This document shows positions 1,121 through 25,892 of a DNA stretch of 64,000 nt, one piece after another (position 1 is the first letter of the stretch; every line of letters begins with the position of its first letter). The position numbers were made by a program, and so were the translations under genes. Location of the stretch: NCBI RefSeq assembly GCF_054482595.1, contig NZ_JBTHVH010000001.1; one strand, given 5' to 3'. Below the pieces are notes generated by a model, which did not search any database, had not been told where the DNA came from, and saw only the letters and a program-made list of their open reading frames with translations. The stretch comes from a plasmid.

Positions 1121-1642
1121 TTATTTCTTTTCTGGACAAGTAGCATTTGGCTGAATTCGAGTTTCATTATCTTTAGTTGAAATAAGCACAGCAAGCCCCG
1201 TTGTAAACTGGCATGCTTTACCAACTTGAGTTGAAGTGAACACCTTAGTTCCTTCTTTATAAGTCAGTGAAACACCTTCAACAATTGTTTTATCACTAAC
1301 CAAAGAACCAGCCGCTGCACCAAGAGCCGCACCACCAGTACCGCCAGCTACAGCACCCAGTGTCGATGTGCCTTTAACATTATAACCGGCAACGCCCCCA
1401 GCAACAGCTCCCAGTACCGCACCAAATGTCTGTGCCGCTTCTTTATTAGCTTTATTATCAACTTTCACTTTAGCTGGAAGCACAGAGATAATATTGACTG
1501 TCTTTGTTTCCTGCTTCGAATTCAATTGAGCGGTATCATAAACATCGGCAGCATAATCAGCACCGCTAGATTGACACCCAGAAAGAAGAATTGCAGATAC
1601 AACAAGAGCGCATAAAGTATACTTTTTAGACATAAGAATCAT
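1121..1642 (-). CDS. lipoprotein with glycine-zipper (GxxxG repeat) region
   Basis: Lipobox LSGC after signal peptide; GAVLGAVAGGVAG and GAVAGGTGGAALGAAAG repeats. Confidence 0.55.
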   Translation of the reverse strand: MILMSKKYTLCALVVSAILLSGCQSSGADYAADVYDTAQLNSKQETKTVNIISVLPAKVKVDNKANKEAAQTFGAVLGAVAGGVAGYNVKGTSTLGAVAGGTGGAALGAAAGSLVSDKTIVEGVSLTYKEGTKVFTSTQVGKACQFTTGLAVLISTKDNETRIQPNATCPEKK

Positions 1643-14999: not shown

Positions 15000-15138
15000 C
15001 GAAAGTCATCCTTTATGCTGTATTTTTGAATTTAATTAAAAATGCTGCATAAAATAATAATGTATGCGTAGATGCTTGTACATAGCATTCTCTGCATGTT
15101 TGGTTCATTTTGCACGATTGAGAGTTACAAGGAGGGCA

Positions 15139-15161
15139 CAAAAAAGCCCCGTTCAGGGGCA
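15139..15161 (-). terminator. rho-independent terminator after the 15168 gene
   Basis: Hairpin GCCCCTGAACGGGGC followed by T-run on the minus strand. Confidence 0.55.
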
Positions 15162-15167
15162 TCAGTG

Positions 15168-15572
15168 TTATTTGCTAAGAGCAGCGAATAATCGTTCGAA
15201 ATCGATAGTATCTATAGCACGCGTAAGCGCCGGAAGTTCAGCCTCAAAGTACCCGTGTCGATCGTAAAAGAAGGGACCGAAGAGCGAGGCATGTTGGATT
15301 CTACTTCGCCCCAGCCCGGACACACAGTTAAGCCCATTACCGGCTAAAAGGCTAAAAAACTTCTCTGGATTATCGTGGTAAAGCTGGGAATCAATGGTGG
15401 CGGTTAACTCTTCCATAGGGAAGCACACCCGCCCTGTATCCCAGGGATATTTAGTCCGAAGCATAAACATTGCTTTCAGCAATTCACATTGAGCGCGGAT
15501 CGCGTCCGGTTCATAGCCAGATATGGAGACATAAGCCACGTCCCTCATTCCTGCGTCATCTTTGAAAGTCAC
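15168..15572 (-). CDS. hypothetical protein (134 aa)
   Basis: ORF with its own terminator; no recognisable motif. Confidence 0.45.
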   Translation of the reverse strand: MTFKDDAGMRDVAYVSISGYEPDAIRAQCELLKAMFMLRTKYPWDTGRVCFPMEELTATIDSQLYHDNPEKFFSLLAGNGLNCVSGLGRSRIQHASLFGPFFYDRHGYFEAELPALTRAIDTIDFERLFAALSK

Positions 15573-15698
15573 GATAGAAGTAACATCCAGCTCTTTTTCG
15601 AAAGAGCAAGCAGCATCTACTGGACGCTGAAGTAAATCATTCGACTTAATGCGCTCGAGAATCCCTCCCTACATATCATTTAGATATTCGATATGAGC

Positions 15699-15977
15699 CT
15701 AAACCTTATCAAGACACTCTCGTGTAAACCATTCAGTATGCCCGCCACCGGCGCTTTTCTCCCACGGCGCATTCCAGGGGAAAAAGGTTGCGTGTAAAGC
15801 CCGCTCAAGATTAACTATTGCCAAACGCGTACCACGATAGACCCGTGAAAGCGCAAAATCGGGACTCACTTGTAGCCCTTTAAACCGTGCCAATGGACCA
15901 CATGAAATGCCGATTTTAAAAGTATCTCCATTCTCCGGCACCAGAACGTAGAGGTAGTGTTGTTTCTCTTCTTGCAT
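15699..15977 (-). CDS. small standalone T5orf172/GIY-YIG-like domain protein (92 aa)
   Basis: YLYVL...KIGIS...GGHTEWF motif arrangement. Confidence 0.5.
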   Translation of the reverse strand: MQEEKQHYLYVLVPENGDTFKIGISCGPLARFKGLQVSPDFALSRVYRGTRLAIVNLERALHATFFPWNAPWEKSAGGGHTEWFTRECLDKV

Positions 15978-15984
15978 ATCAATA

Positions 15985-16240
15985 CCACTGCTTGATGAGA
16001 ACCGCGCAAATGTTGACTATGCGCGATGTGACTACAGTCAAAAGTTGACTGTAGTCGATTTAACTCCACCAAAGATCGACTATGTAAGATATTGTCGGGA
16101 GAAACGTTGACTATACGCGATGAAATGCCCCTAAAAGCCATCTCAATAGCGACTTGCAGAATATTGACGCCAGCAAAAATCCACCAGCGTCAACGAATGT
16201 CGCCTATAGTCAACTTCTCGCTATCGCATATAGTCAATAT
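15985..16240. repeat. incA: incA-like iteron array downstream of repA
   Basis: Multiple copies of the core (C/T)(A/G)TAGTCAA(C/T) in both orientations. Confidence 0.65.
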
Positions 16241-17124
16241 TATGGATTGCGCTTATGGATCTGGAAGCCGATTTTCCTGCCGTTTTTTATCTCTGAAAAT
16301 TTAAGATATTCAATAGCTTCCAAATCTTTCATGGCTTTTCTGATAACGCTATTTTGCACGCTAACGGATGATTTGAGATTAAGCCTCGCTCTAAGGCGCT
16401 CAATGCTGACAGGTGCCGGGTTGGCGGGTAGAGCCTCAAAGAATGTATACAGTACCTTGGCCGTCTCTTTGCGCCCTAGTTTATCCAGCATCTTCAGCTT
16501 CAGGATTCGCTTATAGTCAACATAGTAAAGTTCAGATAGCTGTTTCTGCGGCTGGATCTCGATAACATCAAGCTCGGTATTCAGGCTGCTATATGCCAAC
16601 AAGTTGACGTTAATGTTATTGAGATGACCTTTTGCCGCCGGGAAGCGGAATTTGACAACTGTCTGCTGAATGCGTGTCAGAGAGTCATCAATACTTTTAC
16701 GGAACGCCTTTGAAAGGCGCTTACGTGGATAGCCGCATCGATCGGCAAACTCGGAGAATGGCAGGGTGATTATGCCGTCATCATCAGGTGCGTAGTCAAA
16801 CAACGCGGAGGTTATGCCCACCCACACCTTAAAATCAGTATCCATATCCAGGCGTGGACCATGAATTTCAATTCCCTCATAGCCTTCCTGCTCAACAATT
16901 TTGAGGCTTGATAGTTCTTCAGTTGCGTTCGTTGTGTTTGTTGTAACTGACGATCCGCGACGTAGCGCCACATTGGTAGATTTTAAGGTTGGCACAAACA
17001 CACCTAAGCGCAACAAAGCGATGGGTTGTATAGTGCTGTTGTTATTGGGCTTCAGGCTGTGGATTTCTCCTGTATTTCCTGCAACTTCTTCAACGCTAAG
17101 GAAGCCTTTACTTTCTTCCGGCAT
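16240..17124 (-). CDS. repA: plasmid replication initiator RepA (iteron-binding), divergent from P1 RepA
   Basis: Flanked by iteron arrays; preferred ATG at 17124 with GGAG Shine-Dalgarno (track start 17160); blocks such as GPRLDMDTDFK and PLALLRLGVFVP resemble P1 RepA. Confidence 0.75.
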   Translation of the reverse strand: MPEESKGFLSVEEVAGNTGEIHSLKPNNNSTIQPIALLRLGVFVPTLKSTNVALRRGSSVTTNTTNATEELSSLKIVEQEGYEGIEIHGPRLDMDTDFKVWVGITSALFDYAPDDDGIITLPFSEFADRCGYPRKRLSKAFRKSIDDSLTRIQQTVVKFRFPAAKGHLNNINVNLLAYSSLNTELDVIEIQPQKQLSELYYVDYKRILKLKMLDKLGRKETAKVLYTFFEALPANPAPVSIERLRARLNLKSSVSVQNSVIRKAMKDLEAIEYLKFSEIKNGRKIGFQIHKRNP

Positions 17125-17164
17125 CACGGTTTCTCCATGTGTGGCGCGGCCTGACGTCAATTTG

Positions 17165-17440
17165 GATGGCTGTTATCAACAGCTGTGAATATTCAGACTC
17201 TAAAATCGCTTACAGTCAATGTTTCTGTCGCGTATAGTCAACAATAAATCGCGTGCAGTCAACAATAAATCGTGCACAGTCAACATAAAATCGCGTATAG
17301 TCAATGTTGATCCCATTTCAGGCCAGTAATGACGCGGCTTACAGCGATCCGGGATCTTCTTTGGATCTTCCTAGGTTCTCTTTAGGATCTGTTTATTGGA
17401 TCTATGCTGTGGATAAGTTGAATAAACCGGCCAACAAAGC
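17165..17440. other. oriR-like plasmid origin: five direct iterons, five GATC-containing heptamers, DnaA box
   Basis: Five repeats of AAATCG(C/T)G(T/C)A(T/C)AGTCAA 17195-17310; GATC sites 17345-17395; TGTGGATAA at 17411-17419. Confidence 0.7.
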
Positions 17441-17459
17441 CGGTTGGAAGGAAGTCATA

Positions 17460-17852
17460 TTATTCTACGCTTTCGATAAGAAGACCATGTTCATAACATT
17501 TAAGCTCATCGCCTTCGTACAGGAATTGGTATCCAATACCACCATTTTCATGGACATTAGGGAATAACTCATAACTCACTGAAGAGCAAATCACACCAAT
17601 GCAACGATCAACGCCTTCTCGTTCTTCAGTGCTGAAAAAATCCTCTTCGGTAAGAACATGAGTACATTGCTCATCAGCATAGGTCGGAAATACATGCTCG
17701 ATGCAATCCGGGTGTTTTAAACCAAGCTGATCGGCAAGCTCGAAAGCATGACGGTATTGTTCAGATCCTGGCTTGCCAACAGTGATGTGCTCAATTTTGT
17801 AGATTGAAGTCGCTTTGTTGATAGTTTGCTTTACTGTTACTTTATCAGACAT
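17460..17852 (-). CDS. hypothetical protein (130 aa)
   Basis: ORF immediately after oriR. Confidence 0.45.
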   Translation of the reverse strand: MSDKVTVKQTINKATSIYKIEHITVGKPGSEQYRHAFELADQLGLKHPDCIEHVFPTYADEQCTHVLTEEDFFSTEEREGVDRCIGVICSSVSYELFPNVHENGGIGYQFLYEGDELKCYEHGLLIESVE

Positions 17853-17863
17853 AAAAATCCCTT

Positions 17864-18115
17864 TTAGTTACCGCTGATAGCGCGGTTGTAATCATTAACG
17901 TTGCGATTCTTCCTGTTAATCCCCATCAGCATCGTTTCTGTATCGAGGATATACGCTGGCAGATCATCAAAATATTCACTGCTAAACTCTGGCATCCTGC
18001 ACATAAATGCACTTTTTGGGGCAGGGTGGTTAACCTTTGTCGGCGTCGGCGTTAAATTCGCTGATCGACTCCCGGAGCAACCGCTGAGTGTCAGCAGGAA
18101 TACGCTGGCGAACAT
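17864..18115 (-). CDS. outer-membrane lipoprotein, o-spanin-like (proline-rich after lipobox); start overlaps the upstream gene
   Basis: MFASVFLLTLSGC lipobox then Pro-rich segment; start lies inside the 3' end of the 18030-18452 gene in another frame. Confidence 0.5.
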   Translation of the reverse strand: MFASVFLLTLSGCSGSRSANLTPTPTKVNHPAPKSAFMCRMPEFSSEYFDDLPAYILDTETMLMGINRKNRNVNDYNRAISGN

Positions 18116-18452
18116 TACCCGCCGCAACCAGTTGTTTCTGAACTTCAGCTTTTCGTTCCATTTGCCTGTCAGCATATTTGGCTTGTTCTGATTCATTTTT
18201 CACTTCCTGGCTGTGAAAATGTTGCTCTGCTTTGTTCATCGTCTCAATGGTCTGGTTAAGATCCATTATTGACTTATCACGTTCCTTAACAGCCTGATCA
18301 AGACTGCCAATTTTCTCGATGGCTTGCTTTAGCTGATGACGTTCCCATGCAAACCCAGCACCAACAAGTGCGCAAATCAGAACAAGAACACCAGTAGCAG
18401 CAAGTTTCTCCTTCAAAGACAAAGCTGTTTTTAACGTAGAAAAGAATGACAT
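18030..18452 (-). CDS. i-spanin-like protein (N-terminal transmembrane helix plus periplasmic coiled coil)
   Basis: ATG at 18452 with AGGAGG Shine-Dalgarno; TM segment LAATGVLVLICALVGAGFAW. Confidence 0.5.
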   Translation of the reverse strand: MSFFSTLKTALSLKEKLAATGVLVLICALVGAGFAWERHQLKQAIEKIGSLDQAVKERDKSIMDLNQTIETMNKAEQHFHSQEVKNESEQAKYADRQMERKAEVQKQLVAAGNVRQRIPADTQRLLRESISEFNADADKG

Positions 18453-18491
18453 GTCTTCCTCCTGAAGAAAAATTATCAATGAAGTCCTTTG

Positions 18492-19280
18492 TTACTGTGC
18501 CGCTTTGTTTAATTCATCAAGAACAGAATCAGGAACCAAAGCAGCAACTGCGCTGGCTGTGCTGGCCTTATTTGCTGATGCTTCCGCAAGCGCAGTACCG
18601 ATAGCATGGTTATAAGCAGTTATGGCTACATTGGCGCTTTCATTCGCTCGTTCATACTGCTGTTGTAACGCAGTTGTGGGTGCTGTTGTCTGGTTGAAAA
18701 CAACCCCAAACTGTTCAGTTGCTACTTTCAGAGATTCAATTTGCTCTTCTGTTAGTGCTGGTGGGGGAGTGGCAGTGCCGCCGCCTGAACCAGAGCCTGA
18801 CGAGCTTCCTGAGCCAGTGTTAAGGGTCTGGTTAATCTCCCCCATAGCAGCGACTAAACTTGATGTATTAAGCGCGTTTACAGCGTCCTCAAGCGATTTA
18901 GTAATAGTCACATCACCAATGGCAATAGAGATCGGCAGTTCTGAAACTTCTCGCTCATTAGCACGACAGTAAACATCCCAACCAATATCGAGTTGAAGGA
19001 GCATTGACAGATCAGCATAACCAGCCAACAGGTCCGCGTGCTTAGTTGCCAGTTCTCCAATGTTCGTTAAGCCGGTTGTGGTTGTTCTGATCGTTGAAAC
19101 ATAGCTGGTAATAGTGTCGGGATAGACAATTGTATCCAGAATTAATCCGGTCAATTCTTCTGCAAGCAGTTTTGCTGTGTTAGCACTGTTTCGTGCCGAT
19201 GTTATGGCACCAGGTGTTTTCATCCCACCGGCGGCGGCCAATTTTTTATATGCGGATAACTGGTAGTCTTTTTCCAGCAT
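18492..19280 (-). CDS. hypothetical protein with Gly/Ser-rich linker
   Basis: ATG at 19280 with AGGAG Shine-Dalgarno (track start 19337 would overlap the upstream gene). Confidence 0.45.
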   Translation of the reverse strand: MLEKDYQLSAYKKLAAAGGMKTPGAITSARNSANTAKLLAEELTGLILDTIVYPDTITSYVSTIRTTTTGLTNIGELATKHADLLAGYADLSMLLQLDIGWDVYCRANEREVSELPISIAIGDVTITKSLEDAVNALNTSSLVAAMGEINQTLNTGSGSSSGSGSGGGTATPPPALTEEQIESLKVATEQFGVVFNQTTAPTTALQQQYERANESANVAITAYNHAIGTALAEASANKASTASAVAALVPDSVLDELNKAAQ

Positions 19281-19288
19281 GATATCTC

Positions 19289-19573
19289 CTAACTTACCTG
19301 AACCAGGCCGTCTCCGGACGCTACGGTAGATCCGCATGAAACAGGGTCACCAACGCATACGATCCCTTTACCATTGACGGTAAACCATGCCCTGGTTGAT
19401 ATAGCTTGCCCACCGTGCGTACTGTTTCCATCGGTATGCTGTGCATATTGCTTACCATCAACTAACACTTCGACTCCGTTGACTTTAAGTAGTGCTTCAC
19501 TCTCTACAGGAGGCCTGGATGGGAATCCTCCGTGCCCCGAACAAATGCTGTCTTTTGTTGCAATACTTGCCAC
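19289..19573 (-). CDS. small PAAR-like protein (candidate spike-tip)
   Basis: 94 aa with repeated Gly-His-Gly-Gly and Cys-containing motifs. Confidence 0.35.
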   Translation of the reverse strand: MASIATKDSICSGHGGFPSRPPVESEALLKVNGVEVLVDGKQYAQHTDGNSTHGGQAISTRAWFTVNGKGIVCVGDPVSCGSTVASGDGLVQVS

Positions 19574-19654
19574 GTTATCACCAATTATTTGCTCTGATTT
19601 TCGTTATTTTAACTCAGGTTGTTTGTGGTCTACATGGAGTTCAACTATTGCAAA

Positions 19655-19672
19655 ATTGCTCTAATAAATATT
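19655..19672 (+). promoter_or_regulatory. C1 operator-like site
   Basis: ATTGCTCTAATAAATATT. Confidence 0.6.
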
Positions 19673-19742
19673 GTTTTTTATGTCGTATTTTCGGTACCAT
19701 TCAGCCATCGCCCTTCAATGGGCATTTGTTTGGAGTCGTCAG

Positions 19743-20027
19743 ATGCAGATGGAGCTAATAAGCCGCAAAGAGTTCGATAGCCGTGTAACCAGCGGTGAAC
19801 TCGACAACTTGCAGGCTATCAAGGTGAAAGAAGGCTTTTGCCTCATTGGGAATCAGAGCGGAACAAATCGCGTTTTTATGCTTCGCCGTACGGATTTGAA
19901 GCCATTTGTCTGGAAGAACGAAATTGGTCCCAGCTCATACGCTCAAACGAGGGGGTGCCACAACCTGGCCTTTTTCTACAAAGACGAGCTTTCTGTGGTT
20001 GATATTCAAGGGTTACAACATGTTTAA
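19743..20027 (+). CDS. small protein upstream of hrdC
   Basis: ATG at 19743 with GGAG Shine-Dalgarno; stop overlaps the hrdC start. Confidence 0.4.
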
Positions 20028-23858: not shown

Positions 23859-23934
23859 GATGGTGTAGCTCAGCGGTTAGAGCGGTTGACTGTTAATCAA
23901 CGGGTCGATGGTTCAAATCCATCCACCATCGCCA
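23859..23934 (+). tRNA. tRNA-Asn (anticodon GTT)
   Basis: Manual cloverleaf: acceptor GATGGTG/CACCATC, D arm GCTC-AGCGGTTA-GAGC, anticodon loop CTGTTAA, T arm GATGG-TTCAAAT-CCATC, CCA encoded. Confidence 0.85.
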
Positions 23935-23936
23935 AT

Positions 23937-24012
23937 GCCGGTTTAGCTCAGTTGGTAGAGCGCCTGCCTTGTAAGCAGGATGTCAGCGGTTCGAGTCCGT
24001 TAATCGGCACCA
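23937..24012 (+). tRNA. tRNA-Thr (anticodon TGT)
   Basis: Acceptor GCCGGTT/AATCGGC (one G-U), anticodon loop CTTGTAA, T loop TTCGAGT, CCA encoded. Confidence 0.8.
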
Positions 24013-24014
24013 GC

Positions 24015-24100
24015 ACAACAGGTAAGGGTATTTTGCGACGTCGGAGATCGCCGAGCTTGGCAGAGGGTTCGAATCCCTACGAAGTACCCTTACCGTTGTG
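24015..24100 (+). other. structured tRNA-like element: about 16-bp stem enclosing a T-loop-like GGTTCGAATCC core; not a canonical tRNA
   Basis: CACAACAGGTAAGGGTA pairs with TACCCTTACCGTTGTG; starts immediately after tRNA-Thr. Confidence 0.4.
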
Positions 24101-24744
24101 ATGAAGTGCAGCTCTTTGAAGCAACCAGAAGATAAGCATCTGGCTTCACAACATAAACCGCAGGAACGACCAATAAACGGTAGTCCGTATGGAGAACACC
24201 CCGTTGAGGAAGAGGCCTGGCCGGAACCGTAACCGGCACTACAACGTTGAGAACACTGGCGTAACGGGGTCATATCCCAATCTACGAATAAATGTTGCGT
24301 TGCAGCGTGACAACCAGTGTTCTCAACATTGTGGTGAATGCACAGGCTGATGTGCCGCAACTACAGTAGTGCGCGCTTTGCGGGGCTTGCTACAACCCTG
24401 TGTCGGAGTTCAGCACCGACCATCACAGTTTGATTCTCTGGCATGAGCATAACGCTGAAATAAGTCCAGCCTGGTGCGGCCCGATCACCCGCCGTTAGCT
24501 CCACGAAACGGAGCACGTAACAGGTAAGAGCATTCTCCTGTAACGGGTTCATATCCCAATCTACAGGTCCACCAAGAATGCTCTTTCCGTTGCGGTGAAT
24601 GCGGCTAAGCACACGCGGGGAAATGGTTATATCAGTCCATTCATTTCTCCTTGTTTCCCCGTCCACGGTGGATAACCAGCCAAAGGACACCGGGAGGCAC
24701 CCGGCACCGCAGCTTTTTTATTCGTTAAATAATGGAGTGAGAGG

Positions 24745-24981
24745 ATGCAGAACAATCCGAACAAATGTCGAACGCTATGGGTGCGGTTATATATTTATGC
24801 CGTCCTCTGTTTGATTGTGTCACTGGTTCTGTATGTTTGGCTTTTGCCAAATATGATCTCATCTAACAGCACAATACTTGTATTGTTGGGAGTCCTTCTC
24901 GCGCTCATTTACCCGGCTTTCGCAGTAGTCTTTTTTCGTGAAAAAACCAGGAAATTAATTAATGAAAAAAACGTTGATTAG
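24745..24981 (+). CDS. small membrane protein (two predicted TM helices)
   Basis: 78-aa ORF overlapping the start of the SPFH lipoprotein gene. Confidence 0.4.
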   Translation: MQNNPNKCRTLWVRLYIYAVLCLIVSLVLYVWLLPNMISSNSTILVLLGVLLALIYPAFAVVFFREKTRKLINEKNVD

Positions 24982-25789
24982 TGCAGCGATTATTTTGGGT
25001 TCTTTATGTCTGACCGGATGCGATCGGGTAGAGCCAGGTAACGTAGGGATCAAAGTAAATAAGCTGGGGGATGATAAAGGTATCGGTGAAGTAGTTGGCG
25101 TTGGTCGCTACTGGACAGGCTTGAATACTGAAGTTTATATCTTCCCGACCTTTAAGCAAATGAAGACATACGATGAGCCGTTCAGCTTCCAGATGAGCGA
25201 CGGAACAACCATTGGTTACCACATCGGCGTAGCCTACAAGGTTGATCCAGCAAAAGTCACAACGGTATTTCAGACCTATCGCAAAGGTGTAGATGATATT
25301 ACTGATACCGATCTACGCCAGAAGGTTGCAGATGCTCTGAACCGGTTAGCCAGCAAAATGACCACCGACAAATTTATCGACGGTGGCAAATCTGAATTGC
25401 TTGATGCAGCCCTTAAAGACATTCAGGAAGAAATGACGCCAATCGGCATTCAGGTGATGAGCCTCTCTTATGTAGGTAAGCCAGAATACCCGCCAACAGT
25501 TATTGACAGTATTAACGCCAAAGTCACGGCAAACCAAAAAACCCTGCAACGCGAGCAAGAGGTCAAACAACGTGAAGCAGAGGCCAACATGCTGCGCGCG
25601 GAAGCTGCCGGACAGGCTGATGCTATTCGCACAAAAGCCCAGGCCGAAGCTGATGCCATTCGTTTACGTGGTGAAGCTCTGCGCCAGAACCCCGGTGTTA
25701 TGGAGTTGGAAGCGATCAACAAATGGAACGGTACATTACCGCAGTATATGACCAGTAATACCGCTGTTCCGTTTGTTCCGGTGAAATAA
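24962..25789 (+). CDS. SPFH/band-7-like lipoprotein
   Basis: Lipobox LTGC; Ala/Glu/Gln-rich coiled coil near C-terminus. Confidence 0.55.
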   Translation: MKKTLISAAIILGSLCLTGCDRVEPGNVGIKVNKLGDDKGIGEVVGVGRYWTGLNTEVYIFPTFKQMKTYDEPFSFQMSDGTTIGYHIGVAYKVDPAKVTTVFQTYRKGVDDITDTDLRQKVADALNRLASKMTTDKFIDGGKSELLDAALKDIQEEMTPIGIQVMSLSYVGKPEYPPTVIDSINAKVTANQKTLQREQEVKQREAEANMLRAEAAGQADAIRTKAQAEADAIRLRGEALRQNPGVMELEAINKWNGTLPQYMTSNTAVPFVPVK

Positions 25790-25816
25790 AAGCGTAAGCA
25801 AAATTGGCAGTAATCC

Positions 25817-25892
25817 GGCCCTTTAGCTCAGTGGTTAGAGCTGGCGACTCATAATCGCACGGTCACCGGTTCAAGTCCGGTAGGGGCCACCA
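25817..25892 (+). tRNA. tRNA-Ile2 (anticodon CAT, lysidine type; Met not excluded)
   Basis: Sequence closely resembles E. coli ileX as recalled; acceptor GGCCCTT/AGGGGCC, anticodon loop CTCATAA, T loop TTCAAGT. Confidence 0.75.

Follow-up and report, generated by a model that had tools for sequence, protein, structure and literature searches.

At the replication origin of a plasmid, two reading frames lie partly one across the other, and the question they raise is whether they encode an Rz/Rz1-type spanin pair, as an earlier note on this DNA had proposed, in a place where no other lysis gene is recognisable. The answer depends on what the region is, on where the second gene begins, on whether both frames are really translated and on how the two products are related to spanins of other phages. 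These points are considered here for the window, i.e., the whole 64-kb stretch that was analysed.

The locus on the P1 map

The DNA of the region is 95.8–98.9% identical to P1, P7 and other P1-like phage-plasmids, and it is found in 763 plasmid records. By its sequence, the window is a P1/P7-type phage-plasmid and the pair of ORFs represents ppfA and mlp of P1, the PpfA protein being 100% identical to that of P1 in a tblastn comparison. In P1 and P7, ppfA (gp064, Upf62.7) and mlp (gp063, Upf62.4) have the same neighbours and the same overlap as in the window (Table 1), so the pair itself shows no substantive difference. What differs is the adjacent replicon: repA and the iterons (15101–17322) represent an allele other than that of P1, and no blastn match to P1 was obtained for them.

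According to the P1 annotation, the normal order of genes is repA-oriR-upfA-mlp-ppfA-upfB-upfC, followed by the divergent uhr-hrdC-dmt. The position of the pair beside the plasmid origin, which the earlier note had pointed out, is therefore correct and simply reproduces the P1 map. The two genes upstream of ppfA in the same operon are connected with the virion: UpfC is a PAAR-like spike tip equivalent to gp5.4 of T4 (PMC9024508, PMC12810830), and UpfB is the tail-tip “tripod” protein that is attached to the UpfC spike tip in P1, as seen by cryo-EM (PMC12810830).

Table 1. Features of the ppfA/mlp locus in window positions, in the order of transcription of the operon
Feature	Position	Strand	Description	Basis
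upfC	19289..19573	−	First gene of the operon	PAAR motif matches; PMC9024508, PMC12810830
upfB	18492..19337	−	Upstream gene of the same operon	P1 annotation; phrog_1559; cryo-EM, PMC12810830
Shine-Dalgarno of ppfA	18458..18463	−	AGGAGG, 5-nt spacer to ATG 18452	Sequence; also printed in SpaninDB
ppfA	18030..18452	−	Predicted Rz equivalent (i-spanin) of 140 aa, anchored as a type II protein in the inner membrane	ORF; phrog_89; SpaninDB P1 gp064
PpfA transmembrane helix	18348..18404	−	Residues 17–35 (LAATGVLVLICALVGAGFA)	Kyte-Doolittle; helical in the AF2 model
Shine-Dalgarno of mlp	18203..18208	−	AGGAAG inside ppfA codons Q82-E83-V84, 6-nt spacer to ATG 18196	
mlp	17864..18196	−	Predicted Rz1 equivalent (o-spanin), a lipoprotein precursor of 110 aa read in the +1 frame with respect to ppfA	ORF; phrog_30284; LysC similarity; P1 annotation
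Dual-coding overlap	18030..18196	−	ppfA codons 86–140 plus stop; mlp codons 1–55	
TTG, possible second start	18125..18127	−	Mlp codon 24, aligned with Met1 of P2 LysC	BLASTP
ATG used as start in the earlier note	18113..18115	−	Mlp codon 28; other lineages encode A, V or L	
Mlp lipobox	18077..18088	−	L37-S38-G39-C40	Regex and PROSITE-like pattern; SpaninDB “TLSG↓C”
upfA	17460..17852	−	Last gene of the operon, phrog_1453 (unknown function)	P1 annotation
Terminator-like hairpin and T-run	17431..17447	−	Directly after upfA, before the iterons	Consensus scan only
Origin iterons	17201–17325		5 copies of TCGCGTATAGTCAAC, 21-nt spacing	Sequence

The start and the coding status of mlp

The 3′ end of ppfA is indeed overlapped in another frame by a lipoprotein gene, as had been claimed: the +1-frame ORF ends at 17864. 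Its beginning has to be revised. The earlier note placed it at ATG 18115, giving a protein of 83 aa, and this codon occurs in the P1 lineage only, the relatives having RAF, QVL, RAL or SLV at the corresponding site. The comparison included eight lineages, namely the P1 lineage of the window, six with PpfA about 60% identical to that of the window (the Cronobacter phage JK004 and the contigs L004, L005, L007, L008 and L009), and L011 (31–33%). An ATG equivalent to 18196 is present in all eight and opens an ORF of 108–110 codons; it stands one or two codons past an in-frame stop in seven lineages and 14 codons past it in L004. A Shine-Dalgarno sequence, AGGAAG or CAGGAGG, precedes it in each of the eight. 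The PpfA residues encoded over this ATG vary (NE, DD, ND) and the ATG itself is kept, which points to selection on the mlp start as such.

We take ATG 18196 as the conserved start of mlp and the 110-aa protein as its putative precursor. An 83-aa Mlp was rejected as the principal form because ATG 18115 is not conserved and ATG 18196 is kept in the eight lineages; the downstream codon is unlikely to serve as the main start. Since the conserved start lies at 18196, the overlap measures 167 nt (18030–18196) in place of the 86 nt that follow from the start at 18115, and in the relatives its length is 164–179 nt. The mlp codons situated within it encode the signal peptide and the first 15 residues of the mature protein.

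Is the mlp frame a gene at all, or a chance ORF laid over ppfA as the only real gene? The latter possibility could appeal to the behaviour of routine pipelines, which call a 46-aa fragment of mlp or nothing (PGAP in the RefSeq plasmids names both proteins “hypothetical” and cuts mlp to 46 aa), as well as to the dN/dS above 1 shown by the mlp frame inside the overlap. Yet in this very stretch the h-region and the lipobox core LLTL-x-x-C are invariant. Outside the overlap, in mlp codons 56–110, pN is 0.13–0.18 vs pS of 0.57–0.86 in the comparison with the relatives of about 60% identity, and dN/dS does not exceed 0.13 where dS is unsaturated; as judged from these ratios, purifying selection acts strongly on this half of mlp. 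Moreover, the ATG, the Shine-Dalgarno sequence, LLTL, the lipobox Cys, Cys66 and INRKN are kept in all lineages including L011, and the product is significantly similar to LysC of phage P2 (see below). The chance origin of the mlp frame may thus be regarded as effectively refuted by the sequence comparisons.

Within the overlap it is the ppfA frame that dominates. Its dN/dS there is 0.15–0.26 vs the relatives of about 60% identity and 0.42 vs L011, and its pS falls to 0.48–0.63 from 0.65–0.87 outside the overlap, a reduction of synonymous divergence that is expected for dual coding. The whole overlapped arrangement recurs in L011, in spite of PpfA being only 31–33% identical there. The Shine-Dalgarno sequence of ppfA reads GGGAGG in L011 and AGGAGG in the other seven lineages.

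The conserved start gives Mlp an unusually long signal peptide of 39 residues. The curators of SpaninDB commented on the 110-aa o-spanin of P1 in the same sense: the signal sequence is too long, the start may differ, and LipoP makes no call. Six of the eight lineages have a potential start at mlp codon 23/24 that lacks a Shine-Dalgarno sequence; it is a TTG in the window and in L011 and an ATG in the other four. A shorter precursor beginning at this codon is possible, and the mature lipoprotein would be the same either way.

One can also suggest that the long basic N-terminal extension of the precursor is a regulatory device and not an annotation quirk, an idea that we regard as unlikely. If it were true, the extension could yield two precursor forms by a dual-start logic like that of lambda S107/S105; alternatively, it could slow down the export and so time the maturation of the o-spanin relative to the i-spanin and the SAR endolysin.

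Membrane topology and relationship to known spanins

The 140-aa protein with one N-terminal transmembrane helix that had been described at 18030–18452 is present as an ORF and has one hydrophobic segment. This segment, residues 17–35, reaches a Kyte-Doolittle mean of 2.35 over 19 residues and is the sole one above 1.6; the net charge on its N-terminal side is +2. The AlphaFold2 model of PpfA (mean pLDDT 75) consists of a continuous helix 13–110, a break with Gly and Pro at 111–119 and a second helix 120–139. From hydropathy and this model, PpfA is predicted to have the single N-terminal transmembrane segment, the N-in/C-out orientation and the mostly helical periplasmic domain that characterise an i-spanin. 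The coiled coil assigned to it in the earlier note holds as far as a long helical periplasmic part is concerned; the coiled-coil matches in Pfam are all below threshold. PpfA has no periplasmic Cys.

The second product was correctly recognised as a small lipoprotein with a proline-rich segment. The lipobox pattern, which had been proposed as a check, matches at LSG↓C40 with Ser at +2, and a Pro/Thr-rich stretch lies downstream. The predicted site of lipidation is Cys40, and from Ser at +2 sorting to the outer membrane is expected. Mlp thus combines, by pattern match, the small size, the lipobox Cys and the lack of a Lol-avoidance residue at +2 that are looked for in an o-spanin. In a six-frame scan of the 64-kb window, five ORFs carry a lipobox vs about 1.1 in shuffled sequences.

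The mature Mlp comprises 71 aa, is Pro/Thr-rich after Cys40 with four Pro within its first 25 residues, and contains one further Cys, Cys66. None of nine sequences departs from LLTL or from the lipobox Cys, and the two residues before the Cys vary as SG, SA, NG, NA or GG. Cys66 and the motif INRKN.N.N are invariant in the aligned Mlp sequences, and FMC.MP and DDLP.Y are kept in every database sequence except P0007. At least one periplasmic Cys suited for a homotypic disulfide is present in 507 of the 528 published spanin systems; in the ppfA/mlp pair it is provided by the invariant Cys66 of Mlp.

The closest ties outside the P1-like phages lead to the spanins of P2, and they are of different firmness for the two proteins. 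Mlp belongs to phrog_30284, “Rz-like spanin” (E 3.1e-57), and weakly matches phrog_456 (E 8.4e-5); LysC of P2 has its best match in phrog_456 and matches phrog_30284 as well. A direct comparison of Mlp and LysC is significant both in BLASTP (E 1e-7, 37% identity over 68 residues, with L24 of Mlp aligned to M1 of LysC) and in hhalign run with the Mlp alignment (probability 93%, E 2.6e-7, 65 columns), and the alignment spans the signal peptide, the lipobox, the PTP linker and the PK..C.MP motif. PpfA, in turn, matches phrog_89, “Rz-like spanin” (E 5.1e-25, residues 21–139), which is also the best match of P2 LysB (E 5.8e-61). Neither BLASTP nor hhalign gave anything significant between PpfA and LysB, so their connection consists in the common PHROG.

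The top NCBIfam matches are phage_LysB and P2_Rz1, both far under the curated cut-offs: PpfA scores 18.2 bits vs TIGR03495 (phage_LysB; cut-off 92.75) and Mlp 14.7 bits vs NF038368 (P2_Rz1; cut-off 27). Since the pairwise alignments with LysC are significant and the NF038368 score is below the cut-off, Mlp is best described, as far as such alignments can tell, as a distant homologue of LysC and not as a member of the equivalog. A Pfam scan returned sub-threshold coiled-coil noise for PpfA, nothing for Mlp and no match to Rz (Phage_lysis) or Rz1, and a sequence search of the PDB gave no match.

PpfA has a narrow distribution. A phmmer search of 1.84 billion representatives revealed, besides low-complexity coiled-coil matches, full-length relatives only from P1-like phage-plasmids, the most distant of them being P0106 with 33% identity and the same synteny; tblastn against a phage collection found only P1-like phages and the Cronobacter phage JK004. 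By this search, the PpfA family is essentially confined to P1-like phage-plasmids. Because all its relatives come from this group, no independent “guilt by association” can be obtained from the lysis cassettes of other phages. On the similarities found, the ppfA/mlp pair is distantly related to the overlapped spanins of P2 and makes up a family of its own, which is how it is filed in SpaninDB.

Comparison with three well-known systems specifies this position. In P2, the lipoprotein gene begins within the 3′ portion of the gene for the membrane protein and extends beyond its end, as in the window, and the sizes of LysB/LysC (141/96 aa) are near to those of PpfA/Mlp (140/110 aa); however, the P2 pair directly follows holin Y, endolysin K and lysA, whereas the window pair is unlinked, and Mlp is longer by some 23 residues at the N-terminus and has a different helix, itself conserved, at the C-terminus (INRKNRNVN.YN). 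In common with lambda Rz/Rz1, the pair has an inner-membrane protein of type II whose periplasmic part contains two helical segments, a small Pro-rich outer-membrane lipoprotein in the +1 frame and the predicted role, disruption of the outer membrane by membrane fusion. The differences are that the lambda Rz1 gene is fully embedded in Rz instead of merely overlapping it, that periplasmic Cys occurs in both lambda subunits and here in the o-spanin only (C66), and that sequence similarity is lacking, there being no Pfam Rz or Rz1 match. T4 PseT.3/PseT.2 resemble the window pair in the location of the spanin genes away from holin and endolysin (Kongari 2018), in an i-spanin devoid of periplasmic Cys and in an o-spanin with a predicted C-terminal helix; they differ in that the T4 genes are separated, the o-spanin has two essential Cys and the sequences are unrelated.

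The overlapped Rz/Rz1-type interpretation put forward in the earlier note thus gains support from PMC9025707, from the “ovl” class of SpaninDB, from the PHROG families, from the homology to LysC and from the topology signals.

Predicted role in lysis

The absence of a holin or endolysin near the pair, also remarked in the earlier note, is borne out for the P1 set: when P1 Lyz and LydA-E were used as queries, neither tblastn nor blastn found a homologue in the 64-kb window. In P1 these genes occupy positions 20–31.5 kb and mlp/ppfA 63.4–63.9 kb, i.e., they are about 32–43 kb apart. The ppfA/mlp pair therefore lacks the location in a lysis cassette, which is usual for spanin genes and not obligatory; unlinked spanins have a precedent in T4 (Kongari 2018).

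The timing of expression agrees with that of lysis genes. In published RNA-seq data for P1vir, the log fold change of the five genes upfC-upfA is 4.1–5.6 at 10 min and 10.5–11.2 at 30 min, and the corresponding values rise from 6.1 to 11.3 for lyz, from 5.2 to 11.8 for lydA and from 3.4 to 11.0 for lydB. The structural genes also resemble this pattern. For the flanking uhr, hrdC, dmt, parA and parB, values of 8.6–9.5 have been reached by 10 min, the first three of them standing at 8.6–9.4. The upfC-upfB-ppfA-mlp-upfA operon thus has a late pattern in the literature data. Upstream of the operon, a search for the Lpa-type late promoter motif of P1, as built from the LPlyz and LPdar annotations, gave no match at ≤2 mismatches.

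We consider it likely that ppfA and mlp encode a two-component spanin of the P1-type phage-plasmid that acts by the standard spanin mechanism. This view is based on gene structure, topology signals, conservation and homology to the P2 LysB/LysC family from the present analysis and on the late timing from the literature; the PpfA–Mlp complex and the membrane fusion are proposed by analogy with lambda Rz/Rz1. PpfA, the i-spanin, would use its N-terminal helix 17–35 as the anchor in the inner membrane and would project a mostly helical domain of about 100 residues into the periplasm. Mlp, the o-spanin, would be synthesised from ATG 18196 as the 110-aa precursor. After export it would receive its lipid on Cys40 and lose the signal peptide to signal peptidase II; having Ser at +2, it would then be passed by Lol to the outer membrane, into the inner leaflet, where two copies are probably joined by a disulfide between their Cys66 residues. 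From there the flexible linker, rich in Pro and Thr, and the conserved helix at the C-terminus of Mlp would extend to PpfA, so that the C-terminal parts of both proteins meet and the complex spans the periplasm through the peptidoglycan mesh. Lyz and LydA are encoded elsewhere in the genome; once the holin LydA has released the SAR endolysin Lyz and the latter has degraded the murein, the complexes may collapse and fuse the inner and outer membranes, which would remove the last barrier to phage release.

In an AlphaFold2 model of the fused PpfA periplasmic domain, linker and mature Mlp (pTM 0.51), Mlp residues 41–62 form a disordered Pro-rich linker and the C-terminal helix of Mlp has a pLDDT of 75–88; the five models, with mean pLDDT of 45–70, are too variable for a conclusion on the interface to be drawn.

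Several observations speak against the spanin function: the absence of a Pfam match, the sub-cut-off NCBIfam scores, the non-significant comparison of PpfA with LysB, the lack of linkage to holin and endolysin, the 39-residue signal peptide, the missing Lpa motif and the result of a CRISPRi knock-down, in which the efficiency of plating was 0.24 for mlp and 1.3 for ppfA and both were scored as non-essential, lambda Rz being scored as essential in the same study. Such a result, with no plaquing defect, would also suit a role of PpfA and Mlp in tuning the timing of lysis, e.g., via the holin or the SAR endolysin, with no disruption of the outer membrane. P2 LysB/LysC were originally annotated in this way, their record noting “nonessential; affects timing of lysis” and “regulation of lysis”, and the P1 note on mlp reads “possibly involved in regulation of lysis (by homology)”. 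However, P2 lysB/lysC are now classed as Rz/Rz1-type spanins in product names and PHROG families, an inner-membrane coiled-coil protein combined with an outer-membrane lipoprotein is the defining topology of spanins, and spanin defects are known to look mild in shaken laboratory culture (PMC9025707). We find a purely timing function decidedly improbable.

The dispensability for plaquing, together with the operon shared with the spike-tip gene upfC and the tripod gene upfB, could also fit an envelope-spanning complex that serves infection, DNA entry or superinfection exclusion, altering the envelope vs an incoming phage. Outer-membrane lipoproteins encoded by phages, e.g., Cor and Llp, act in exclusion, which speaks for this idea. 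Nevertheless, the expression is late-lytic and not lysogenic, and the homologies lead to P2 LysC and to the PHROG of LysB, both members of a lysis cassette. The main text and the accessible supplement of the P1 proteome study by LC-MS/MS mention neither PpfA nor Mlp, and the same is true of the main text of the cryo-EM paper (PMC12810830). An exclusion or entry complex seems very improbable to us, even more so than a timing function, and the two-component spanin is retained as the preferred interpretation.

The ppfA/mlp pair as such is already known, having been predicted to encode spanins since 2007 and catalogued in SpaninDB. In their abstract, Summer and co-workers are said to have placed P1 among the classic phages with newly found Rz/Rz1 equivalents.

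PMC9025707 describes the P1 spanin genes ppfA and mlp as partly overlapping members of an operon that is not linked to the remaining lysis genes, and it draws their identity from predicted features, citing Summer et al. 2007; the i- and o-spanin labels are swapped in this paper. The tables of SpaninDB (Kongari et al. 2018) file P1 and P7 in the “ovl” class, and the P1 entries contain the exact i-spanin sequence of the window and a 110-aa o-spanin with the Shine-Dalgarno sequence AGGAAG and the lipobox TLSG↓C. The Shine-Dalgarno sequence and the ATG that open the N-terminal extension of this o-spanin are kept in every lineage compared here, though they lie inside ppfA codons. The RefSeq product name of P1 mlp is “Rz-like spanin”, and several GenBank records name the products Rz and Rz1. 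A literature search under the name ppfA alone returned, among the matches listed, unrelated acronyms only.

The discovery value of the locus is small, as the pair was recognised in 2007 and stands in a curated spanin database; what the present analysis adds is the corrected start of mlp, the evidence for coding, the homology of Mlp to LysC and the context of a late operon. At the same time, what we take to be a true overlapped spanin pair was recognised from the sequence alone, though the standard pipelines annotate it poorly, and it may be used as a positive control for finding such pairs.

The replicon and the nuclease gene

The replicon at 15101-17322, in which a RepA gene is accompanied by iterons and related copies (see the table), has no blastn similarity to P1 repA/incA/incC, although the DNA on either side is 97-99% P1-like. 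A replicon swap seems to have taken place here, in a region known to vary among P1-like phage-plasmids. Two in-frame stop codons interrupt the window's copy of the nuclease gene that lies between parA and repA, whereas a 99%-identical copy in the plasmid pPC6-mcr1 (NZ_CP080254) is intact and encodes 269 aa; in the window's element this gene is probably a pseudogene.

Coordinates of the features discussed
Feature	Position	Strand	Remark
173-aa ORF	1121-1642	-	clean lipoprotein signal …AILLSG|C
GIY-YIG / T5orf172-family nuclease gene	15168-15977	-	between parA and repA
Copies related to iterons TCGCGTATAGTCAAC	16008-16238		part of replicon
RepA, RepB/RepFIB-type	16240-17160		part of replicon
Iterons TCGCGTATAGTCAAC	17201-17325		part of replicon
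46-aa mlp fragment	17864-18004		compared with sequences L017 (3305-3445) and L002 (1965-2105)
tRNA genes Asn-GTT, Thr-TGT, Met-CAT	23859-25892	+	three genes
P1 late-promoter motif matches	4510, 12549, 12611, 31664, 49483, 60262		at most 1 mismatch

A possible lipoprotein gene and the tRNA genes

The 173-aa ORF, which by coordinate offset lies roughly where P1 has its sim (superimmunity) genes, gave weak, sub-threshold TraT and glycine-zipper Pfam matches, and it may encode an exclusion or serum-resistance-type lipoprotein. The three tRNA genes are in line with expectation for a P1-type genome.

Probable late promoters and annotation of mlp

The six matches to the P1 late-promoter motif (0.9 expected by chance) are probably late promoters of morphogenetic operons. 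Published P1 RNA-seq indicates late expression of the upfC-upfB-ppfA-mlp-upfA block. Upstream of it (stretch considered: 18400-19850, minus strand), the Lpa-type motif AAGTNACTT-N4-TANNNT has no match at up to 2 mismatches, and only a weak sigma-70-like site (19612-19584) was found.

In PGAP output and in some GenBank records, automated annotation labels both ppfA and mlp as hypothetical and cuts mlp to a non-overlapping 46-aa fragment starting at an internal Met. Kongari et al. (2018) described a systematic annotation bias against overlapped o-spanin genes, and the truncation of mlp is the same bias.
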